Numbered from the stretch's first letter, positions 9,235 to 33,288 are shown. The stretch is 64,000 nucleotides of DNA from a bacterium (GCA_037137535.1 JBAXKC010000001.1:96001-160000); one strand, 5' to 3'. Program-made: numbers and translations. Notes: a model not told the origin generated them from the letters alone.

Positions 9235-9654
9235 ATGTTAAAAAAACCTTTTATTTTAAGTCTGATGTTATTCGGAATATCGATATTGATAGCTATAATT
9301 TTTTCAATATTTATTACTCTTTTTAAGATAAATATAGGTTCATTTATAATCGCCATAGCTGCTACTAATTTAGCTGCCGCCATTACAGGTACGATATATA
9401 CAGGCAAATATAAAGTGGCACTTAATAAAAATGAAAAAATAAAAATTTCAGGATATTACTTTGCAATTCAAATAATAACGTCTACATGTCTAATTTATTT
9501 ACTAAAGATTAAATCAATAGAACTTATAATGGCTATAACCCTAATTCCATTGTTTCTTCTTACTTTAATAATCTATTTTTCACTTGGGAGGGGCTGTAAA
9601 ACAAAACTAAGAGAACTAGAAAAAAAAGAATTATTAAATAAATCTTCAGTTTAA
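9235..9654 (+). CDS. Hypothetical membrane protein, about 4 TM helices
   Basis: Hydrophobic ORF co-oriented with aroQ; AGGG RBS. Confidence 0.65.
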   Translation: MLKKPFILSLMLFGISILIAIIFSIFITLFKINIGSFIIAIAATNLAAAITGTIYTGKYKVALNKNEKIKISGYYFAIQIITSTCLIYLLKIKSIELIMAITLIPLFLLTLIIYFSLGRGCKTKLRELEKKELLNKSSV

Positions 9655-9684
9655 AAAAATTAAGACCGTTTTAAAATTTTTCGC

Positions 9685-9712
9685 AAAATAAAAGCCACCT
9701 TTTTGGGCGGCT
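9685..9712 (-). terminator. Intrinsic terminator of the candidate sRNA
   Basis: Minus strand AGCCGCC-caaaaa-GGTGGCT followed by TTTATTTT. The U-tract and G-U pair work only on the minus strand. Confidence 0.8.
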
Positions 9713-9761
9713 ACCAGACTTTGGGGAGGAGGTTGGGGTATGACCATTTGTTTGGTCTATA
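9685..9761 (-). ncRNA. Candidate sigma28-dependent small RNA with a C-rich anti-SD seed
   Basis: Perfect sigma28 promoter upstream; 5' hairpin GACCA-aacaaa-TGGTC; linker ATACCCCAACCTCCTCCCCAAAG; intrinsic terminator; no credible ORF with an RBS. Confidence 0.75.
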
Positions 9762-9767
9762 TTTTAT

Positions 9768-9794
9768 TTATCGGCAAATTATTTTAAAACTTTA
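9768..9794 (-). promoter_or_regulatory. sigma28 (FliA/SigD) promoter
   Basis: Minus strand TAAAGTTT-taaaataattt-GCCGATAA, an exact match to TAAAGTTT-N11-GCCGATAA. Confidence 0.88.
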
Positions 9795-9834
9795 GGGTTT
9801 TATTTGAAGCAATTAATATTTCTTAACAAAAGTC

Positions 9835-9865
9835 AAAAACCGTTTGCGACAAAACAAACGGTTTT
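9835..9865 (-). terminator. Intrinsic terminator after flgE
   Basis: AAAACCGTTTG / CAAACGGTTTT inverted repeat about 20 nt after the flgE stop. Confidence 0.75.
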
Positions 9866-9887
9866 ATTTTTAAAAATCAACTATTTA

Positions 9888-11261
9888 TTATCTTCCGATG
9901 TTAATGATTGATTGCATTATCTGACTCTGTGTTGAGAAAACTCTACTACTTGCTTCAATTCCTCTTTGAGCCAGCATCATCTCTGAGAATTCAGTAGGTA
10001 AGTCGATATTTGCTGTTTCTAATGCCCCAGAATCCACCATTCCAAGTCCACCTGCTTTACCCACGCCATACATAGTGTTTCCTGAACCTGGTCCAAACTG
10101 AAAAAGGTTACCTGACGTGGACATTAAACCTTTTGGATTTGCAACGTTACAAATCTGCAATTGTAATTCTTGAGGCTTTATAGCAGTAACAGAACCACCA
10201 TTAGCTCCTGTAATATCTGCTCCATTAATCTCAGTACCTGTTACTGTTTTATAAGATAAAGCTCTTACCGGATCTCCTGATACTGTAATTTTAGCACCGT
10301 TAGAATAAACTGCTTCAATTGCTCCATCTTTACCTACGGAAAAAGAGGACATTGAATATGTACTTGGAGAAGAATCACCCGGCTCAATACTTATTTTATT
10401 GGTATTTTTCAATCCTATGCTTGAAGTTGTAGTTACAGGAGTAGAAGCGGCAGGGTCTAAAGTTAAAGAATTAAAACCCATTACACTAAAGAAATTACTG
10501 GAATCTCCCGAGTCGCCGAATGTAACTTTTGCAGTAGCTCCGGGACTAGGCTCATCCGGTGCAATGTCAATACTAAGTTTATTTCCTGTAATAGTAGCGG
10601 TTACACCATCAAGAGCATCTATATCTGCTCTTACACTTTCAATTGTGGAATTTTTATCAATGGTAACTGTCTTAGTAGTTACGCTTGTAGGCGAGCCTAA
10701 TCCATCATCAATTTTAAAACTGAATGTTCCCTCAGAAACTGCAGGAGCTTGTCCGGAACATGCATTGGTGATTTTATCTCCAGCCGCAGCATCAGGCATT
10801 GAAAGTTTTAAAGTCTGAGGAATTCTAATCGGAGCTACACTTCCGGAAGGACTAACTACGTTTGCTGTGCCTAGAACTGATAAACCTTGAGGAGTAACAA
10901 GGTTTCCATCTCCATTAATGGAGAAGTTACCGGCTCTTGTCAAAGAAATAGAACCTAGAGGATCTTTAACCGTAAAAAAGCCATCACCTTGAATGTTAAG
11001 ATCGGTAGTTCTTCCTGTTGTTTGAACTGTTCCATTTGAAAAGTTTCTTGATACCTCAGAAAGTGTCGCACCAAGACCAACCTGCATCGGGTTTGTATTA
11101 CTTGATCCATTAGTAAGAGTTCTTACAAAGATATTTTCAAAGTTTACTTTACTACCTTTAAAACCTACCGTATTCATGTTTGCGATATTATCCGCAATTA
11201 CATCTAATTTTGTCTGTGATGTTTTAAGACCCGTAATTGCTGTAAATAGGGCTTGAGACAT
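9888..11261 (-). CDS. flgE: Flagellar hook protein FlgE
   Basis: LFTAITGL...IADNIANMNTVGFK, TGRTTDLNIQGDGFF, TRAGNF, C-terminal GALETANIDL...AQRG; follows flgD. Confidence 0.93.
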   Translation of the reverse strand: MSQALFTAITGLKTSQTKLDVIADNIANMNTVGFKGSKVNFENIFVRTLTNGSSNTNPMQVGLGATLSEVSRNFSNGTVQTTGRTTDLNIQGDGFFTVKDPLGSISLTRAGNFSINGDGNLVTPQGLSVLGTANVVSPSGSVAPIRIPQTLKLSMPDAAAGDKITNACSGQAPAVSEGTFSFKIDDGLGSPTSVTTKTVTIDKNSTIESVRADIDALDGVTATITGNKLSIDIAPDEPSPGATAKVTFGDSGDSSNFFSVMGFNSLTLDPAASTPVTTTSSIGLKNTNKISIEPGDSSPSTYSMSSFSVGKDGAIEAVYSNGAKITVSGDPVRALSYKTVTGTEINGADITGANGGSVTAIKPQELQLQICNVANPKGLMSTSGNLFQFGPGSGNTMYGVGKAGGLGMVDSGALETANIDLPTEFSEMMLAQRGIEASSRVFSTQSQIMQSIINIGR

Positions 11262-11287
11262 TATTCAACCTCCTCAATCAATATTAT

Positions 11288-11707
11288 TTATTTTATGCTC
11301 TGTACTAAATTCATCGGATATGCCTTGTTATTAATAAGAAGATTAGCACCCTTGCTATCTATCTGTGCCTCACTGACTACACCCTTAATGGTACTATTTG
11401 GATTATCAGGATCTGTCATTGTAACTTCTTTTCCAATAAGAGCACTTGCTTGCATAATTTGATTAGATGAATTCTGATTTTTATTTAATTTTTGAAGCTC
11501 GCTTATCTGTGTAAATTGAGCGGTTTGTTGAATAAATTGCTCATTTTTTGTTGGCTCCATAGGATCCTGATTTTGCATTTGCTGCATCAATAATTGAAGA
11601 AATGCATCCTGATCCATGTTACTGCTGCCCATTCTGGTTTTTGCTTTCTCCGCATTAACCATTTTAGTATTATTGGTTATATCTGTTAATGTATTTTGTA
11701 CTAACAT
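11288..11707 (-). CDS. flgD: Flagellar hook cap FlgD
   Basis: DQDAFLQLLMQQMQNQDPMEP...AQFTQI, ASALIGKEV. Confidence 0.93.
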   Translation of the reverse strand: MLVQNTLTDITNNTKMVNAEKAKTRMGSSNMDQDAFLQLLMQQMQNQDPMEPTKNEQFIQQTAQFTQISELQKLNKNQNSSNQIMQASALIGKEVTMTDPDNPNSTIKGVVSEAQIDSKGANLLINNKAYPMNLVQSIK

Positions 11708-11724
11708 GCTTACCCCTTTTCCTC

Positions 11725-13383
11725 CTAGATAGTGTAATCGACTAATCCCTGATGATTAAGCGTTTGTGGCTGAGCTGACGTATCTGCTTCAATCTCACCT
11801 AAATCTTTCTGATAATTATTCATCAACGTCCCCTCTGAGGTTTCATTGCTATTTTGCGATGATTTGTTTTGATTATTCAAATTAGATTGCTCAAATGCCT
11901 GTGCATTTTCATTAAACTGTTGAGAAGGGTTTTGATTTTGTGGTGATTGTTCGGAAGATTGAACTACTATCTTGCCTACGCTGATTCCTTGCTCTGTTAA
12001 TGTCTGTTTTAAGGATTCTATACCTTTATTTATTATTTCTTTGACATGCTCATTTTCAGTATCTATTTTAGCGGTTAAAACACCATTTTCACTTATTAAC
12101 TTAATATCAACTTTACCTAACTTATCGGGTCTTAATGATATTGTTATTTCTTTGTTATCCTGCTTTAATTCCGCTTTTAGCTTGTCATTAATTTGATTTA
12201 ATATCTCTTTTGCCTGTTCACTTCTTTGAGCTAATGGAGTTTTTTCTATTTTCAGCTGTGCTGCAAAGTCCGATTTAGCTACTCCTTGCATTTCACCTGT
12301 TGCCATTAATTTAAAATCAGGCTGTTTTTGAGCGAAATTATTTGAATTTGTACCATTTTTACCCATACTTGAAGTATCTTTAGAAACCTGTTGAATTTGC
12401 ATTCTTGCCATCATAGTTTTTACATCTTCAGTCTGTTCATTACTTCTAGGAGCTTTAACAGAGACTTCTTGCTTTTTAGTTTCTAATGGTCTTTCAACCT
12501 TTTGAGTCAAGGTATCATTATTCTCTGAAACTTTTACCGTTGCATCTTTATCAATATTAATTTCAGGTTTATTTTTTAATTTTTCAATATTTTTCTTATT
12601 TTCTAAAATATTATGTTTTTCTGATACTTCGGCAAGAACTTTTTTATTATTAGAGATTTGTTCTTTGTTATTAACATTTTCTACTTTAAAGTCAACAACA
12701 TCCTTTTTAGCCTCTGTTGCATTATCTGTATTTTTTGTATGAGTACTAATATGCTTTAATTTTGACTCAAGCTCAGCAACTTTATCCGTTGTCTCCGGCT
12801 TACCTTTAACATCTACCCCTTCAGCTATATTTTTTGACTTAATTTCTGATTTAAACTCTGATTTGGGAACGGTTACGGATTTTAGTTTATTATTTTGTTC
12901 TTTAATCTCAGTTTGTCCCAGTTTTTCAGTTGATATAGGTTGTTTTGTATAAACAACAGGTTGCTCAGGCTTTTCTCCGGTTTTAATCTCTTGTTTAGGA
13001 GCTACATAAGATTGAGTATTAATGTATAGACTTGGATCAATTTCATTTTTATCTTTTTCAGAAGAATTCTTTTTAGTACTTTCTTCCTCTTTATGTTCAT
13101 TTATATATGACTTTTCAGAAGGAGAATAAGAATTTTTTGACACTTCATTCTGTTGATTATAGCTATAATCATTATTTTTAACCTCTGACTGATTAGACTG
13201 TTTTGAATCAGCCATAGACATAGAATTAAATTTACTTTTTTGAAATGTAATAGTTTTAGATGCAAACTCAAATATATTTGCAAACCCCTTAGCATCAGAA
13301 GAATCCATTGCCTTTTTCCCTTGAGAAATAGGAGAAACAGAAGGTTTTACTCTGTCTATCGTTGTTTCATTTAAAACTGTCAT
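11725..13383 (-). CDS. fliK: Flagellar hook-length control protein FliK
   Basis: Long disordered N-terminus; C-terminal ISLRPDKLGKVDIKL...LKQTLTEQGI (Flg_hook); upstream of flgD. Confidence 0.9.
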   Translation of the reverse strand: MTVLNETTIDRVKPSVSPISQGKKAMDSSDAKGFANIFEFASKTITFQKSKFNSMSMADSKQSNQSEVKNNDYSYNQQNEVSKNSYSPSEKSYINEHKEEESTKKNSSEKDKNEIDPSLYINTQSYVAPKQEIKTGEKPEQPVVYTKQPISTEKLGQTEIKEQNNKLKSVTVPKSEFKSEIKSKNIAEGVDVKGKPETTDKVAELESKLKHISTHTKNTDNATEAKKDVVDFKVENVNNKEQISNNKKVLAEVSEKHNILENKKNIEKLKNKPEINIDKDATVKVSENNDTLTQKVERPLETKKQEVSVKAPRSNEQTEDVKTMMARMQIQQVSKDTSSMGKNGTNSNNFAQKQPDFKLMATGEMQGVAKSDFAAQLKIEKTPLAQRSEQAKEILNQINDKLKAELKQDNKEITISLRPDKLGKVDIKLISENGVLTAKIDTENEHVKEIINKGIESLKQTLTEQGISVGKIVVQSSEQSPQNQNPSQQFNENAQAFEQSNLNNQNKSSQNSNETSEGTLMNNYQKDLGEIEADTSAQPQTLNHQGLVDYTI

Positions 13384-13398
13384 CCTCGTCCCCTTACT

Positions 13399-13854
13399 TT
13401 ATATACTCTGATTTCTTATGTATCTTGATGTCGCAATATCATCAATTTCAGCCATTGTATGTTTTTCTATCTTTTCATTAAATTCTTTTAAACCTTTCTC
13501 TTTAAGTTTTTCAAGAATTTTCTTTGCTTTCATTGCTTCGAGCATTATGTTCTTTTTTTCTTCCAGTTCAAACTCAACGTCAGCTATTACTTTATGTTGA
13601 TGTCCGATATCAGATTCAAGTTTTACTATATAACCCCTATAGTTATTAATAGTAAAAGGATCAATTGATAATGAAGAAGAAAGTACCGACTTTAAGCCCA
13701 CATTTGTTTGCTTTAACTTATCATAGAGCTCTTCTAACTTTTTATTTTCCAATTGCAACTTATATTGCACTCTGGAAAACTCAAGCTGAGCATTTTCAAG
13801 CTGATTTGTTCTAGTATCAAGTAAACTTTGAAGCCGAAACTTATAGCCTTTCAA
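13399..13854 (-). CDS. fliJ: Flagellar export chaperone FliJ
   Basis: YKFRLQSLLD N-terminus, KILEKLKEK...EIDDIA C-terminus; TTG start. Confidence 0.88.
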   Translation of the reverse strand: MKGYKFRLQSLLDTRTNQLENAQLEFSRVQYKLQLENKKLEELYDKLKQTNVGLKSVLSSSLSIDPFTINNYRGYIVKLESDIGHQHKVIADVEFELEEKKNIMLEAMKAKKILEKLKEKGLKEFNEKIEKHTMAEIDDIATSRYIRNQSI

Positions 13855-13987
13855 CCCGAACCCCTACTGATAATAAGTTGTTATACCCCGTCATATAAGA
13901 AGATTACCTCATGAAAAAAACCTTTACATCCTCCAAAAAAAGTATAAGAACCCCAATACTTTAGTAGGATAAGGATTAACGATGAAT

Positions 13988-14009
13988 ATATAGACCATCT
14001 GGTCTATAT
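13988..14009. promoter_or_regulatory. Perfect 10-bp inverted repeat, possible operator
   Basis: ATATAGACCA-tc-TGGTCTATAT in the divergent region between fliJ and the small ORFs. Confidence 0.4.
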
Positions 14010-14097
14010 CCAAAGACAGATGGAGAAACATGATTGTATTATTAAAATAATATATATAATGTTTCATTAAAGTTGTTTTAGAAAAGAGGAATATCTT

Positions 14098-14229
14098 ATG
14101 ACACATGATGAAAAGTTAAATAAATATTACGCTTATGCTGCTAAAAAACTTCTTAAAGAAAAAAAATTAGACCTTTTTAAATGGGTAACATCAATGAATA
14201 AAAAACCAGAACAAGACTTTTTGTTTTAA
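14098..14229 (+). CDS. Small hypothetical protein, 43 aa (paralog A)
   Basis: MTHDEKLNKYYAYAAKKLLKEKKLDLFKWVTSMNKKPEQDFLF; GAGGA RBS and upstream TATAAT; similar to the next ORF. Confidence 0.7.
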   Translation: MTHDEKLNKYYAYAAKKLLKEKKLDLFKWVTSMNKKPEQDFLF

Positions 14230-14334
14230 TCTAAAATTTTACAAACGCAATTTTTTATATACTTTGTTTTATAACTAATATATTGTGGAATACATATAAT
14301 CCATTTAAAAGTATTTTGATAAAGGTAAAAAATT

Positions 14335-14484
14335 ATGGCAAATAGTGAAAAACTAAATAAATATTATGAAAATGCAGCGAAGCAAATACTAAGAGAAAAA
14401 GGACAAAATTTCTATAAATGGCTAAAACTTGTATCACTTCAAAAAGATAAGCAAGATGTGCTAGATATAATCGAAGATCAATAA
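14335..14484 (+). CDS. Small hypothetical protein, 49 aa (paralog B)
   Basis: MANSEKLNKYYENAAKQILREKGQNFYKWLKLVSLQKDKQDVLDIIEDQ; AAGGT RBS and upstream TATAAT; terminator follows. Confidence 0.7.
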   Translation: MANSEKLNKYYENAAKQILREKGQNFYKWLKLVSLQKDKQDVLDIIEDQ

Positions 14485-14486
14485 AC

Positions 14487-14539: not shown

Positions 14540-16276
14540 CTATTTTGTAGTTTTGACAACTTCATTATTATCAGAATTAAATTCTGTTTTAGCAGACTGC
14601 TGAATTTTTTCTATTTCTTTTTTAAGCGTTGGTAATTCTTTATCCTTGCCTGTTTTTTTATACCAATCATCTAACAATTTTTTATATTCTTCACCTGAGA
14701 AATTATTTCCGCCTTTTCCTGCAACTTCTTTATATAATCCAACATATTCTTCGATAAATTCTCTATGGAAATCAATAATTTTCTTGGCAATAAGACTTGC
14801 CGAATCAGATATTTGCTTAATATCTTTAGAAACTTCCTGAGTTACAGCTGATTTTGCATAATCATTAGCTTTAGCACAAACTTGTTTTGTATTAGGCCCT
14901 AATCCTAAAGCAGTAACACCATCTGTAATTATCTCTGTGGCAACTTTAAGATCTTCAGAAACTCCATCAAGGTTTGTACCGCCTAATCTGGCTCTTTCAA
15001 TATTATAACTTCCATAACAGACAGCCGCTTCTGCCAGCATTGAATTAAAGGACATATGAGGGTTTTCCCCTTCATCTGTAAATACTGCACCAAGGAATTT
15101 ATCCCTTTCATCAAGACTTATAATTGAGTTTTGATGAGGCTTTTCCCATGGATTTTTAGCAAAATCGGATAATACTTGTCCGACAAGAGCATGTCCGCAT
15201 TCATGAGCAACTGTATTTTCCTTATCCCACTTTGGAAGATCTGAGAAAACTTTAGGACCTGCCAATAATTCTATTTTAGATTCAAAAATATCATTAGTTG
15301 TAATATATTTAGGCTCATCCCTTAAAGCAGCAAAATTTGCAGCTCTATTCATTACTTCAGCAAGCTGAGCACCTGAAAGTCCTCTAGTTATTTTTGCTCC
15401 CTCTTCAAGAACTTTCTTTTTATCTTCTTCCGATTTGAATTTCTTATCTAAAGAATGAATAGCCAGAATTTCAGTTCTTGCCTGTTTATTTCTTGAAGGA
15501 TTAGGAATTTTCAAAGTATAATCAAATCTTCCCGGTCTTATAGCGGCGGCATCAAGATCTTCAAGTCTATTTGTAGCCGCAAGGAAAATAATTCCTTTAT
15601 TATCAGTCGTTCCATCCATTTCTCTTAAAAACTGATTAAGAACCTTTCTGTCTTCGTTATGCTCATTGTCTTTACCTCTTGCCCCTGCTAATGAATCAAA
15701 TTCATCAATCAAAACAATAACTTTATGTGCAGGTGTATCAGTGACAACTTCTCTTGCTTTTACAAATAAAGCCTTAACTGCCTTAGGTCCATCGCCTAAA
15801 TATTTTTGAGCAAAATCACTTCCTGAAACTGAAATCAGAGGTAGTTCCGCTTCTCCTGCTATTGCTTTAGCTAAAAGAGTTTTACCGGTTCCGGGCGGGC
15901 CATATAATAAAATCCCTTTAGGTATTTTAGCTCCTTGCTCTGCAAATTTTTCAGGATGCTTCATATATTCTATAACTCGGTTTTTGATGATATCTTTAAT
16001 TTCACTAATACCCCCAACATCTTTAAGTTTTACGCCTGTATAATGAATCACGTTAAATTCAGGGAGTTCACTATCACTTCCAAATGCGCTAAAACCTTTA
16101 AATGGCAAAAAATTAGCTTTTAAGTGATTTGCATTATAATTAGACAACAAAGCGTTATGGGATAATGCTAATCCATTTGTTTTTAACTGACTTTTCTGTT
16201 GAGTTTGTTTCTTTTGCAACTCAATACTGTTCAATCCTTCATTCAAAAATAAAGGATTCAGTTTAACTGAAACCAT
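14540..16276 (-). CDS. FtsH-like AAA+ / M41 zinc metalloprotease without TM anchors
   Basis: GPPGTGKT, LIDEFD, ATNR...RPGRFD, HECGH; hydrophilic N-terminus. Confidence 0.88.
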   Translation of the reverse strand: MVSVKLNPLFLNEGLNSIELQKKQTQQKSQLKTNGLALSHNALLSNYNANHLKANFLPFKGFSAFGSDSELPEFNVIHYTGVKLKDVGGISEIKDIIKNRVIEYMKHPEKFAEQGAKIPKGILLYGPPGTGKTLLAKAIAGEAELPLISVSGSDFAQKYLGDGPKAVKALFVKAREVVTDTPAHKVIVLIDEFDSLAGARGKDNEHNEDRKVLNQFLREMDGTTDNKGIIFLAATNRLEDLDAAAIRPGRFDYTLKIPNPSRNKQARTEILAIHSLDKKFKSEEDKKKVLEEGAKITRGLSGAQLAEVMNRAANFAALRDEPKYITTNDIFESKIELLAGPKVFSDLPKWDKENTVAHECGHALVGQVLSDFAKNPWEKPHQNSIISLDERDKFLGAVFTDEGENPHMSFNSMLAEAAVCYGSYNIERARLGGTNLDGVSEDLKVATEIITDGVTALGLGPNTKQVCAKANDYAKSAVTQEVSKDIKQISDSASLIAKKIIDFHREFIEEYVGLYKEVAGKGGNNFSGEEYKKLLDDWYKKTGKDKELPTLKKEIEKIQQSAKTEFNSDNNEVVKTTK

Positions 16277-16580
16277 TCTGATCTCTCCTTCTACCTTCGC
16301 CTCTTTTAGTGTTTAACGTACACTTATATTTACTGTTTTAAATTATATATCAAATTTTAAAATCATACCCAATTCTTTATTAAATTATTATATCTTTATA
16401 AATCCTTTCAGGGCGAATTCAGGCAGGCAGCAGAGACCCACATGTAAAACATGCATTTAAAATATTTATTAAATATATACAAAATACGCAATTTTCAAGA
16501 TCAGTTTGTTTTTATATAAATACAGAGGGAAATAAAAAAGAGAATTTAAAATAAAGCGAGTTTTTTGGGGAGGCAGGTTT

Positions 16581-17150
16581 ATGGGTTTTGACGATATTTC
16601 ATTAGCAAAAATTAAATTTCATTCTTATACTTCAACAACTTCAAATGGAAATGTACAATCAGCAAATCCTTTTAATCAAAGTATTTTTTCAAATTCTACT
16701 TCAGTAAATACAAAGACTCCAAATTCTAGTCTTTCTTATAATAATTCACAGTTCGGAGTGACAACGCCAAACTCCTCTGTTTTTAACAGTTCAACAAGTT
16801 TAAATTATTCAACAACTAATGCAAACAATAACGATAGCTCAATATTTGCAAAGAAGCATCACCATGCACACCACCATCAACATAAAAACAAGGTAGATAC
16901 AGCGAGTAATCCTCAACTTGATGCGATACTTGCCAATGTTGACAATTATATTGCACAATTAGAACAACAAAGTCAGACACAAGAATCCAATAATCCTGAC
17001 AATCAAAATACTGATAATAATGGAGACGATGACAACTTCTTTAAAAAATTAACAAAAACTGCTATTCCAATAGCAATGAGCTTCACAGGTGCAGGCGGCA
17101 ATCCGATTACTGATGCAATAGGTGGTATTGGCGGACTATTTGGTCTTTAA
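16581..17150 (+). CDS. Low-complexity Ser/Asn/Thr-rich protein with His patch and Gly-rich hydrophobic C-terminus
   Basis: Strong GGGGAGG RBS; terminator follows. Confidence 0.7.
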   Translation: MGFDDISLAKIKFHSYTSTTSNGNVQSANPFNQSIFSNSTSVNTKTPNSSLSYNNSQFGVTTPNSSVFNSSTSLNYSTTNANNNDSSIFAKKHHHAHHHQHKNKVDTASNPQLDAILANVDNYIAQLEQQSQTQESNNPDNQNTDNNGDDDNFFKKLTKTAIPIAMSFTGAGGNPITDAIGGIGGLFGL

Positions 17151-32921: not shown

Positions 32922-33288
32922 TAATACAAAAGCAAGTAGCATAGATGATCGCGGATGCATTTGCATCTGAGGAAAGTCCGGGCACCATAGGGCAGACCGC
33001 CGGATAACTCCCGGTACAGGCGACTGTGAGGATAGTGCCACAGAAATGATAACCGCCGATGACGCTAAATTTTAGCGAACAGGTAAGGGTGCAACGGTGG
33101 TGTAAGAGACCACCGGGGATGTTGAGAAACATCTGCCAGGTAAACCCCGGTCGGTGCAAGGTTAAATTGAGAATAAAAGACGGCCCGTTATTTCTCAGGT
33201 AAACCGCTAGAAGTGTTTGGAAACAACCACTCCAGATAGATGATCATTGATACAGAACCCGGCTTATTGGCTACTTGCTTTTGTATTA
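32922..33288 (+). ncRNA. rnpB: RNase P RNA (bacterial type A)
   Basis: GAGGAAAGTCCGGGC, AGTGCCACAGAAA, GGTAAACCCC and ACAGAACCCGGCTTA conserved boxes; complementary ends; TATAAT at 32909-32914. Confidence 0.97.

Follow-up and report, generated by a model that had tools for sequence, protein, structure and literature searches.

A predicted multicopy small RNA with a sigma28-type promoter in Gastranaerophilales and its complementarity to the start sites of middle-class flagellar genes

Directly behind the flagellar hook operon of an uncultured bacterium stands the predicted gene of a small RNA (sRNA), and the unpaired linker of this RNA is complementary to ribosome-binding sites (RBSs) of the same operon. 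Does the sRNA control these genes, and if so, these alone? The locus lies in a window of 64,000 nucleotides (nt), which is the whole stretch of DNA analysed here (GCA_037137535.1, JBAXKC010000001.1:96001-160000; positions are counted from its first letter). The DNA comes from an uncultured relative of cyanobacteria, of the lineage Gastranaerophilales, which are non-photosynthetic. An earlier note on the window had read the complementarity as a possible feedback loop, in which hook completion frees sigma28 and the sRNA then shuts off the hook, hook-cap and ruler proteins of the adjacent operon. This interpretation is partly supported. The complementarity of the sRNA to hook, rod, ring and junction start sites is far above chance, and the proposal has to be widened from the adjacent hook operon to the middle-class flagellar regulon. 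The reading that we favour, with moderate confidence, is that a trans-acting sRNA driven by FliA (sigma28) would serve as a negative feedback brake on flagellar assembly through pairing with the RBSs of middle genes.

The small RNA gene and its family

The sRNA gene is on the same strand as the hook operon, downstream of the flgE terminator, with its promoter about 40 nt beyond that terminator. The unit lies outside coding genes, between the flgE terminator and the next gene, and has a promoter and a terminator of its own (Table 1). Its fold scores z = -2.7 against shuffled sequences, and the whole linker is complementary to an idealised start region, namely GGGGAGGAGG, a 7-nt spacer and AUG. 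No family in Rfam 15 matches the sRNA at gathering score; at E <=10 the matches are at chance level, and Phe_leader, the best of those that overlap the sRNA, reaches 14 bits where 55 are needed.

The gene is one of nine. A BLAST search of its own genome with a 161-nt query gave nine copies, 88-100% identical over 95-161 nt, and one 21-nt fragment; each of the nine has its own promoter and terminator. DNA read depth is 138-278 over the sRNA locus against 36 in the flank. The promoter is of the sigma28 type: the exact pattern TAAAGTTT-N10-13-GCCGATAA occurs at six sites in the genome, all six upstream of sRNA copies, where a reversed control pattern gives none. All nine copies carry the exact pattern or a near variant, and eight of the eleven best sites in a relaxed sigma28-like scan belong to sRNA copies. 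We take a -35 TAAA box with a -10 box resembling GCCGATAA to be the sigma28 consensus. In Campylobacter jejuni the -10 element of sigma28 is given as CGATwt (PMC4626219). FliA is encoded in the genome (C23:27701-28375; TIGR02479, 247 bits against a cut-off of 190) and is above the cut-off in 57 of 61 relatives. A flagellin gene on contig 11 has a promoter similar to that of the sRNA and is the one supporting case for a wider sigma28 regulon. It was outside a Pfam scan of 14 genes behind other sigma28-like promoters, which found mostly unknowns and no flagellar gene and thereby leaves the regulon without validation.

Homologues of the sRNA are present in 54 of the 61 genomes of the order, this one counted. 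An exact-pattern scan with one genome per species found at least 119 loci, and among the 80 matches listed the titles are almost all Gastranaerophilales, Melainabacteria, Vampirovibrio or Cyanobacteria bacterium. Across the order, 35 sequences from relatives show hardly any change in the core, CCUCCUCCCC-A(A)GUCURGUAGCCG, and its substitutions are from C to U only, which retain pairing with G. The stem of the 5' hairpin, read by eye, varies (GACC/GGUC, GGUC/GACC, GGGC/GCCC, GAGC/GCUC, GAAAAAC/GUUUUUC) and is complementary throughout. RNAalifold on a MAFFT alignment of 41 sequences, in which this variable region is misaligned, did not recover the 5' hairpin and gave no covariation statistic; four stem pairs of the terminator were kept in all 41. 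A crude minimum free energy (MFE) check of 81 sequences with rough ends showed the 5' hairpin in 41, a fully free seed in 29 and the terminator in 32. Promoter and terminator are retained throughout the relatives, the sigma28-type motif also in an aflagellate family (f3) to which we return below. Outside the order, the core was found in one of 118 genomes of a class-level sample, against three matches for a control pattern.

The sRNA family is undescribed and, within the genomes searched, confined to the order Gastranaerophilales. An assignment to Campylobacterales, with the sRNA as a homologue of CJnc170, was dropped, the related loci being titled Gastranaerophilales or Melainabacteria. Among the 10-12 best-ranked full-text matches of a literature search, out of thousands above threshold, there was no paper on an sRNA in Melainabacteria or Gastranaerophilales.

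Some further observations concern the family. Three copies stand in tandem about 160 nt apart (this genome, G000, C4:50425-50868 and C4:51269-51763 for the triplet region and the next gene), and the gene downstream, of 164 amino acids (aa) and without a Pfam family, is the tenth-best predicted target by duplex energy. In many relatives (loci L100-L155 and L010-L027) a short hairpin-like element, ...CATC-AAAT-GGATGA/GGAGGATATT..., precedes the -35 box of the sRNA by about 20-30 nt; it may be a regulatory site or the tail of a conserved gene next door, and the copies in this genome are without it. One genome of another order in the class holds a near-core match, CCTCCTCCCCCAAGTCT (G116 C9:40350-40366), which may be a chance match or part of an sRNA gene.

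Complementarity to flagellar start sites

Pfam identifies the four genes of the hook operon, on the minus strand, as fliJ, fliK, flgD and flgE. The pairings described for them earlier are borne out base by base. At flgE the plus strand at 11266-11275 reads caacctcctc, which gives GAGGAGGUUG in the messenger RNA (mRNA), complementary at ten of ten positions to CAACCUCCUC of the sRNA (9735-9726). At flgD, AGGAGGAAAAGGGGUA (AGGAGG-AAAA-GGGGUA) pairs 6+6 with UACCCC-AA-CCUCCU, and at fliK, GGGGACGAGG pairs with CCUCCUCCCC at nine of ten positions. The pairing at fliJ is weak, as had been said.

These sites were placed within a ranking of the whole genome, for which 2571 genes were called by a codon-usage score, with the choice of start aided by Shine-Dalgarno (SD) sequences. 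Each start region (-30 to +15) was scored against the linker by RNAduplex, and a second set (n = 2570) was corrected for accessibility by a crude, IntaRNA-like opening-energy term for both RNAs. By duplex energy all four hook-operon genes stand within the first 61 (Table 1). The ranking itself brought to the surface a second operon, on contig 15, identified by Pfam as slt-flgF-flgG-flgA-flgH-flgI-flgJ-orf107-flgN-flgK-flgL (orf107 has no Pfam family), and nine of the 11 genes of this rod, ring and hook-junction operon are in the top 75, flgA and flgH lying outside. Other flagellar loci were mapped by six Pfam searches and one Pfam scan; motB ranks 31, motA 44, and a LuxR-type regulator ahead of flgB 25. 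The interpretation in the earlier note is supported in so far as flagellar mRNAs are credible targets, but the target set is not limited to the adjacent operon, since it extends to a regulon-like group on other contigs (rod, P/L-ring region, flgN, flgK, flgL and motAB).

The remaining flagellar genes rank lower. Early genes are at 369 (flgB), 92 (flgC), 1462 (fliE), 109 (fliF), 2309 (fliG), 182 (fliH) and 1190 (fliI), fliPQR-flhBA at 147-2265, and the four flagellin genes that were scored at 258-951. The genes of a second, flagellar-like cluster on contig 13 rank 595-2073, except slt at 56. The top 75 thus hold none of 12 early and export genes and one of 12 from the second cluster. As a guard against post hoc choice of a group, all 32 classical flagellar genes were pooled, and 15 of them are in the top 75 (hypergeometric p = 8.5e-16).

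With the correction for accessibility flgN ranks 3, flgI 5 and flgG 8, and flgD, fliK and flgE follow within the first 16 (Table 1); the top 25 then include six of the 15 genes of the hook and contig-15 operons (p = 2e-9). Duplexes with long loops fall, among them those of fliJ, flgK (280) and slt (1011). The best sites pair with CCCC tracts and CAU, beyond CCUCC alone.

The enrichment recurs in relatives. In a genome of another family (G015; 744 genes in 800 kb, called and scored in the same way against the linker of G015) the top 5% takes in seven of 14 orthologues (p = 1e-6), where 30 shuffled linkers give 0-5; Mann-Whitney tests give p = 6e-5 overall and p = 1.5e-4 within strong-SD genes. 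Sequence-specific enrichment is thus observed in two genomes. In 13 further relatives from six families, 138 orthologues of the contig-15 genes were set against 90 neighbouring open reading frames (ORFs), some of them perhaps spurious: median energies per gene family run from -6.9 to -19.6, flgA being weakest, against a median of -7.3 for the neighbours (p = 1.5e-16), and GGGG is found in 45 of the 138 flagellar start regions against one of the 90 neighbouring ORFs. Hand counts over 29 loci, with three miscalled starts dropped, found GGGG, mostly as GGGGAG(G), at flgE in 18 of 28 and at flgD in 19 of 27 usable loci. The p-values overstate the case, because related genomes and the genes of one operon are not independent samples.

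How specific is this signal? The strongest competing explanation, which we nevertheless consider unlikely, is that of a generic C-rich anti-SD sRNA with its real targets elsewhere, among the top unknown genes or those shared with f3, so that the flagellar match would be a by-product of G-rich RBSs kept for strong translation or for CsrA, which recognises GGA and whose gene this genome contains. Simple G-richness does account for part of the signal, as shuffled C-rich linkers show a baseline enrichment of 1-5 of 15 genes where 0.4 would be expected (0-5 of 14 in G015). The real linker, however, brings 13 of the 15 genes of the hook and contig-15 operons into the top 75, where 40 of 40 composition-preserving shuffles bring in 0-5, and it likewise beats 30 of 30 in G015. 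GGGG stands upstream of eight of these 15 genes and of 219 of all 2571. The enrichment also remains among genes with strong SD sequences: within 1080 of them, 12 hook, rod, ring and junction genes rank far better than the rest (Mann-Whitney p = 8e-9), whereas the 16S anti-SD tail as sole probe separates the groups only at p = 0.003 (16S ribosomal RNA was not found in the assembly, and the probe is the canonical tail). As flagellar start regions do better than those of other strong-SD genes, flagellar mRNAs are credible targets, and the enrichment of hook and basal-body genes that the earlier note expected of a genome-wide ranking is found.

The by-product explanation draws further on the three top predicted targets, which are non-flagellar and without a Pfam family (the ORF in the window, 16581-17150, listed with the span 16551..17150 in Table 1; G000 C27:7547-8800; G000 C1:190531-191661). 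Two of the three are S/T/N/Q-rich, without a signal peptide and with MG at the start. Their pairing spans SD through AUG, and that of the ORF in the window reaches the conserved AAGUCUGG part of the sRNA. A swap of linkers among 14 genomes favoured a genome's own linker by 0.4 kcal/mol only and gave no clear sign of co-evolution, in a test that the near-invariant seed leaves with little power. The sRNA is moreover kept in f3, which is without FlgI, flagellin and a true FlgE. On the other hand, the match singles out one flagellar class (middle genes, and not early genes, flagellins or the second system), it recurs in other families, and the best sigma28-type promoters that the genome holds are those of the sRNA, linking it to the flagellar programme.

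Could the sRNA act on translation as a whole? An abundant mimic of the 16S anti-SD, made from nine genes, might titrate all strong-SD mRNAs while sigma28 is active and so shift ribosomes. We hold this to be improbable. The linker does contain ACCUCCU, like the 3' tail of 16S, and the copy number and read depth are high, but sRNA pairing energy is only moderately correlated with anti-SD energy (r = 0.58). The 18 genes around rpsJ, presumed to be a ribosomal-protein operon with AGGAG sites (S10 alone is confirmed by Pfam, the others are presumed by position), rank 118-1776 and are not among the good targets, and the best sites use more than CCUCC.

A putative brake on assembly and what weighs against it

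If the sRNA is a brake on flagellar assembly, FliA, once active, would drive the nine sRNA genes. Their linker would pair from SD to AUG of mRNAs with GGGGAG(G)-type sites, which are predicted to include those of the hook (flgE, flgD, fliK), the distal rod and P-ring (flgF, flgG, flgI, flgJ), flgN, flgK and flgL, and motAB. Pairing would block binding of the 30S subunit, and hence initiation, and the output of hook-basal-body, junction and stator parts would be damped. Expression of the sRNA, its dependence on FliA, translational repression and a hook-completion trigger are what we infer from sequence, and for the direction of repression and the trigger (hook completion through export of FlgM) we lean on established knowledge of other systems. 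A simple shut-off of the hook misfits the full target set, since flgK, flgL, flgN and motAB are needed after hook completion. Because these too are predicted targets, the picture is less that of a hook-only switch than of a general brake on the building of further flagella.

Several points weigh against this reading, in addition to the baseline of shuffled linkers, the non-flagellar top targets and the small effect of the linker swap described above. The gene calls and the energy model are home-made rather than taken from Prodigal, IntaRNA or CopraRNA, and mean energies are weaker in relatives (-12.5 to -16) than here (-18.8). The sRNA gene stands beside the hook operon in this genome, but it is one of nine copies, and a copy stands within 1.5 kb of flgE in none of 29 relatives. 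In assembled (Logan) metatranscriptome contigs (two runs, same sample) flgE, flgD and fliK are covered in part and 9557-9870 not at all; such contigs cannot show a 77-nt RNA. For the trigger by hook completion and sigma28, FliA is encoded, but FlgM gave sub-threshold Pfam matches only (E = 0.0145 and 0.004). The sole FlgM-like candidate, G000 C1:33158-33502, has a start region that ranks 70 of 2571, and its homologue in G015 (C1:628704-629054) ranks 12 of 744; if this is FlgM, the sRNA might feed forward on sigma28 as well.

Also at odds with a strict hook-completion loop is f3, a family of 27 genomes that are about 99% complete. FlgI and flagellin are each found in 0 of 27, and matches to FlgE are weak and rod-like only (E = 1e-5 to 1e-9). 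FliA is nevertheless over the cut-off in 27 of 27, and one sRNA copy is present by BLAST in 26 of 27. A perfect 11-mer of the sRNA occurs exactly once per genome in 13 of 13, and the copy carries a sigma28-type promoter. A search of these 13 genomes for targets with long complementarity returned the sRNA gene as the sole perfect 11-mer, and one-mismatch matches occurred at the control rate. In three f3 genomes fliA adjoins homologues of the second, hook-less cluster, and the start regions of these genes are without strong complementarity to the sRNA. Because f3 keeps FliA and the sRNA, the sRNA does, or may, serve some function where a classical flagellum is lacking, and the question is raised why both are kept in a family without flagella.

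An extension of the brake, tentative but worth stating, is a post-transcriptional class switch of the Gastranaerophilales. A GGGGAG(G) code in the RBSs of some 15-20 hook, rod, ring, junction and stator mRNAs would mark them for joint silencing by the multicopy, sigma28-driven sRNA once sigma28 is active, and the module of FliA and sRNA would outlive the flagellum and control other genes in f3, a family left on this view with a reduced apparatus derived from the flagellum. If this is true, the sister lineage of cyanobacteria that does not photosynthesise would thereby have its first described riboregulator.

The second flagellar-like set is divergent and in this genome occupies G000 C13:60-11444 (loci L177). 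It comprises fliI, flhA, fliH, fliF, fliE, an SLT transglycosylase gene, three to four rod-like genes and unknowns, without hook, flagellin or ring genes; its homologues beside fliA in f3 are loci L232-L234. It may be a reduced, flagellum-derived export apparatus. Apart from the two full-length flhA genes, four further proteins show a match to FlhA that is limited to its C-terminal cytoplasmic part (FHIPEP ~270-655): G000 C2:107894-109006, C34:584-1639, C27:25255-26343 and C60:3211-4173, the one on C34 being near a sigma factor gene and an sRNA copy.

Two more readings were weighed. The sRNA could be the antisense repressor of a small ORF on the opposite strand, in the manner of a type I toxin-antitoxin module. 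The plus strand at 9721-9786 offers a perfect SD, a 7-nt spacer and an ATG that opens a 15-codon hydrophobic ORF (MTICLVYILFIGKLF), and the multicopy element with its tandem triplet would suit such a module. Among 79 distinct loci the ATG recurs at the corresponding position in 55 and is missing in 24; ORFs of at least 10 codons are found in 43 of the 79, and lengths vary between 2 and 63 codons. No conservation is seen among the peptides, the letters that they share being the sRNA promoter read backwards; where a plus-strand promoter would be needed, the paralogues have no sequence in common, and on the plus strand a hairpin and a U-run come directly after the ATG. An antisense role would also leave the enrichment at flagellar start regions unexplained. 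We judge it very unlikely, and the opposite-strand SD and ATG most likely reflect the sRNA being an "anti-start-site". An inert dispersed repeat with chance promoter-like and terminator-like pieces, as its multicopy and partly tandem state might suggest, is hardly credible for an element whose 25-nt core is near-invariant across an order whose FlgE proteins share just 40-53% identity, which f3 keeps in exactly one perfect copy per genome (13 of 13), whose hairpin stems vary yet stay complementary, and whose promoter and terminator are kept throughout.

The brake on assembly thus remains the reading that we prefer, and the features on which it draws are collected in Table 1.

Table 1. Features of the small RNA locus, the hook operon and the best-scoring target in the window (rank by duplex energy of 2571 genes; rank after accessibility correction of 2570).
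Feature	Span	Strand	Basis and remarks
Predicted sRNA	9685..9761	-	About 77 nt; 5' end inferred from promoter spacing
sRNA promoter, sigma28 (FliA)-type, TAAAGTTT-N11-GCCGATAA	9768..9794	-	Sequence reading
sRNA 5' hairpin, 5 bp, GACCA/UGGUC	9742..9757	-	MFE fold
C-rich seed linker AUACCCCAACCUCCUCCCCAAAGUCUGGU, 29 nt	9713..9741	-	Unpaired in MFE and centroid folds
sRNA Rho-independent terminator, 7-bp GC-rich stem (9712-9693), then U-run	9685..9712	-	Terminator scan
flgE terminator	9836..9865	-	Terminator scan; separates flgE from the sRNA promoter
flgE (hook), 9888-11261, with RBS GAGGAGGUUG at 11266-11275	9888..11275	-	Pfam; duplex rank 61, accessibility rank 16
flgD (hook cap), 11288-11707, with RBS at 11711-11726	11288..11726	-	Pfam; duplex rank 40, accessibility rank 9
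fliK (hook-length ruler), 11725-13383, with RBS GGGGACGAGG at 13384-13393	11725..13393	-	Pfam; duplex rank 41, accessibility rank 11
fliJ, 13399-13854, with weak G-rich site around TTG start	13399..13864	-	Pfam; duplex rank 55, accessibility rank 329
ORF of 189 aa, S/T/N-rich, His-rich tract	16551..17150	+	No Pfam family; second-best target, -34.8 kcal/mol; accessibility rank 4

Around the hook operon, a hairpin TAGACCAGATGGTCTA at 13990-14010 (-), upstream of fliJ, resembles the 5' hairpin of the sRNA. It sits inside a 60-codon ORF (13924-14106, -) that has no Pfam family and lies upstream of the operon, and two more GGGG motifs are found ahead of fliJ. Between the operon and a gene for an FtsH-like AAA protease (14540-16276) stand two small paralogous ORFs, 14099-14230 (+) and 14337-14485 (+), of about 43 and 49 codons, both with ...EKLNKYY...AAK.... 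Elsewhere in the window, RNase P RNA of bacterial class A is encoded at 32932-33282 (+; 268 bits).

Comparison with known flagellar small RNAs

In the RsaE/RoxS-type sRNAs of Firmicutes, unpaired C-rich tracts pair with the G-rich SD sequences of many mRNAs, and the seed is strongly conserved; these sRNAs differ from that of the Gastranaerophilales in regulon, which is metabolic, in control and in lineage. The models known for post-transcriptional control of flagellar assembly are few and are proteobacterial or campylobacterial. Four sRNAs of Escherichia coli depend on sigma28 and act in other ways; among them FliX lowers flagella synthesis and MotR raises it (PMC10578931). Feedback of FliA-controlled sRNAs on flagellar synthesis would be a shared trait, but those of E. 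coli are derived from untranslated regions and associated with Hfq, whereas the sRNA described here would have an anti-SD seed and a gene that stands alone behind a promoter of its own.

In C. jejuni, CJnc230 (FlmE) lies directly downstream of flgE, like the sRNA gene in our window, and regulates the flagellar cascade (PMC11187230). It is transcribed together with flgE from a sigma54 promoter, excised by RNase III, and represses flgM, so that late genes are enhanced (PMC11187230). In the present locus, by contrast, a terminator closes flgE, a separate sigma28-type promoter precedes the sRNA, and the adjacency is not conserved.

The closest analogue is the pair CjNC1/CjNC4 of C. jejuni (CJnc10/CJnc170, the latter renamed FlmR), although we do not claim membership in that family. 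These are sigma28-dependent sRNA paralogues that are predicted to pair over the RBSs of sigma54-dependent middle-class flagellar genes, flgE2 included, by a conserved single-stranded stretch that is followed by a terminator hairpin; they are shorter than 50 nt, are without a 5' hairpin, and are reported from thermophilic Campylobacter only (PMC4626219). In the C. lari group both copies are near flgE2, and in E. coli CjNC1 and CjNC4 partly repressed fusions to target 5' untranslated regions (PMC4626219). Overexpression of CJnc170 led to shorter flagella and less motility (PMC11187230). The feedback of sigma28-dependent sRNAs on hook genes in C. jejuni is thus a proposal that draws on predictions and partial reporter effects.

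The Gastranaerophilales sRNA likewise has paralogues, a sigma28-type promoter and predicted RBS pairing with middle genes including flgE. It differs in its length of about 77 nt, its 5' hairpin and its nine copies, where the CjNC RNAs have fewer than 50 nt and two copies; in a target set that shares a GGGGAG-type SD; in its conservation across a whole order; and in belonging to another phylum, the comparison being one of descriptions. What it offers is an unusually clean computational signature, with one conserved seed, many copies and a target set that has a distinctive RBS and forms one assembly class, together with a short, concrete list of seed and target pairs that E. coli reporters could test with no need to culture the organism. 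The same feedback logic as proposed in C. jejuni has apparently evolved independently in a barely studied, uncultured lineage; the circuit is of a familiar kind, and the RNA family that would carry it is undescribed.

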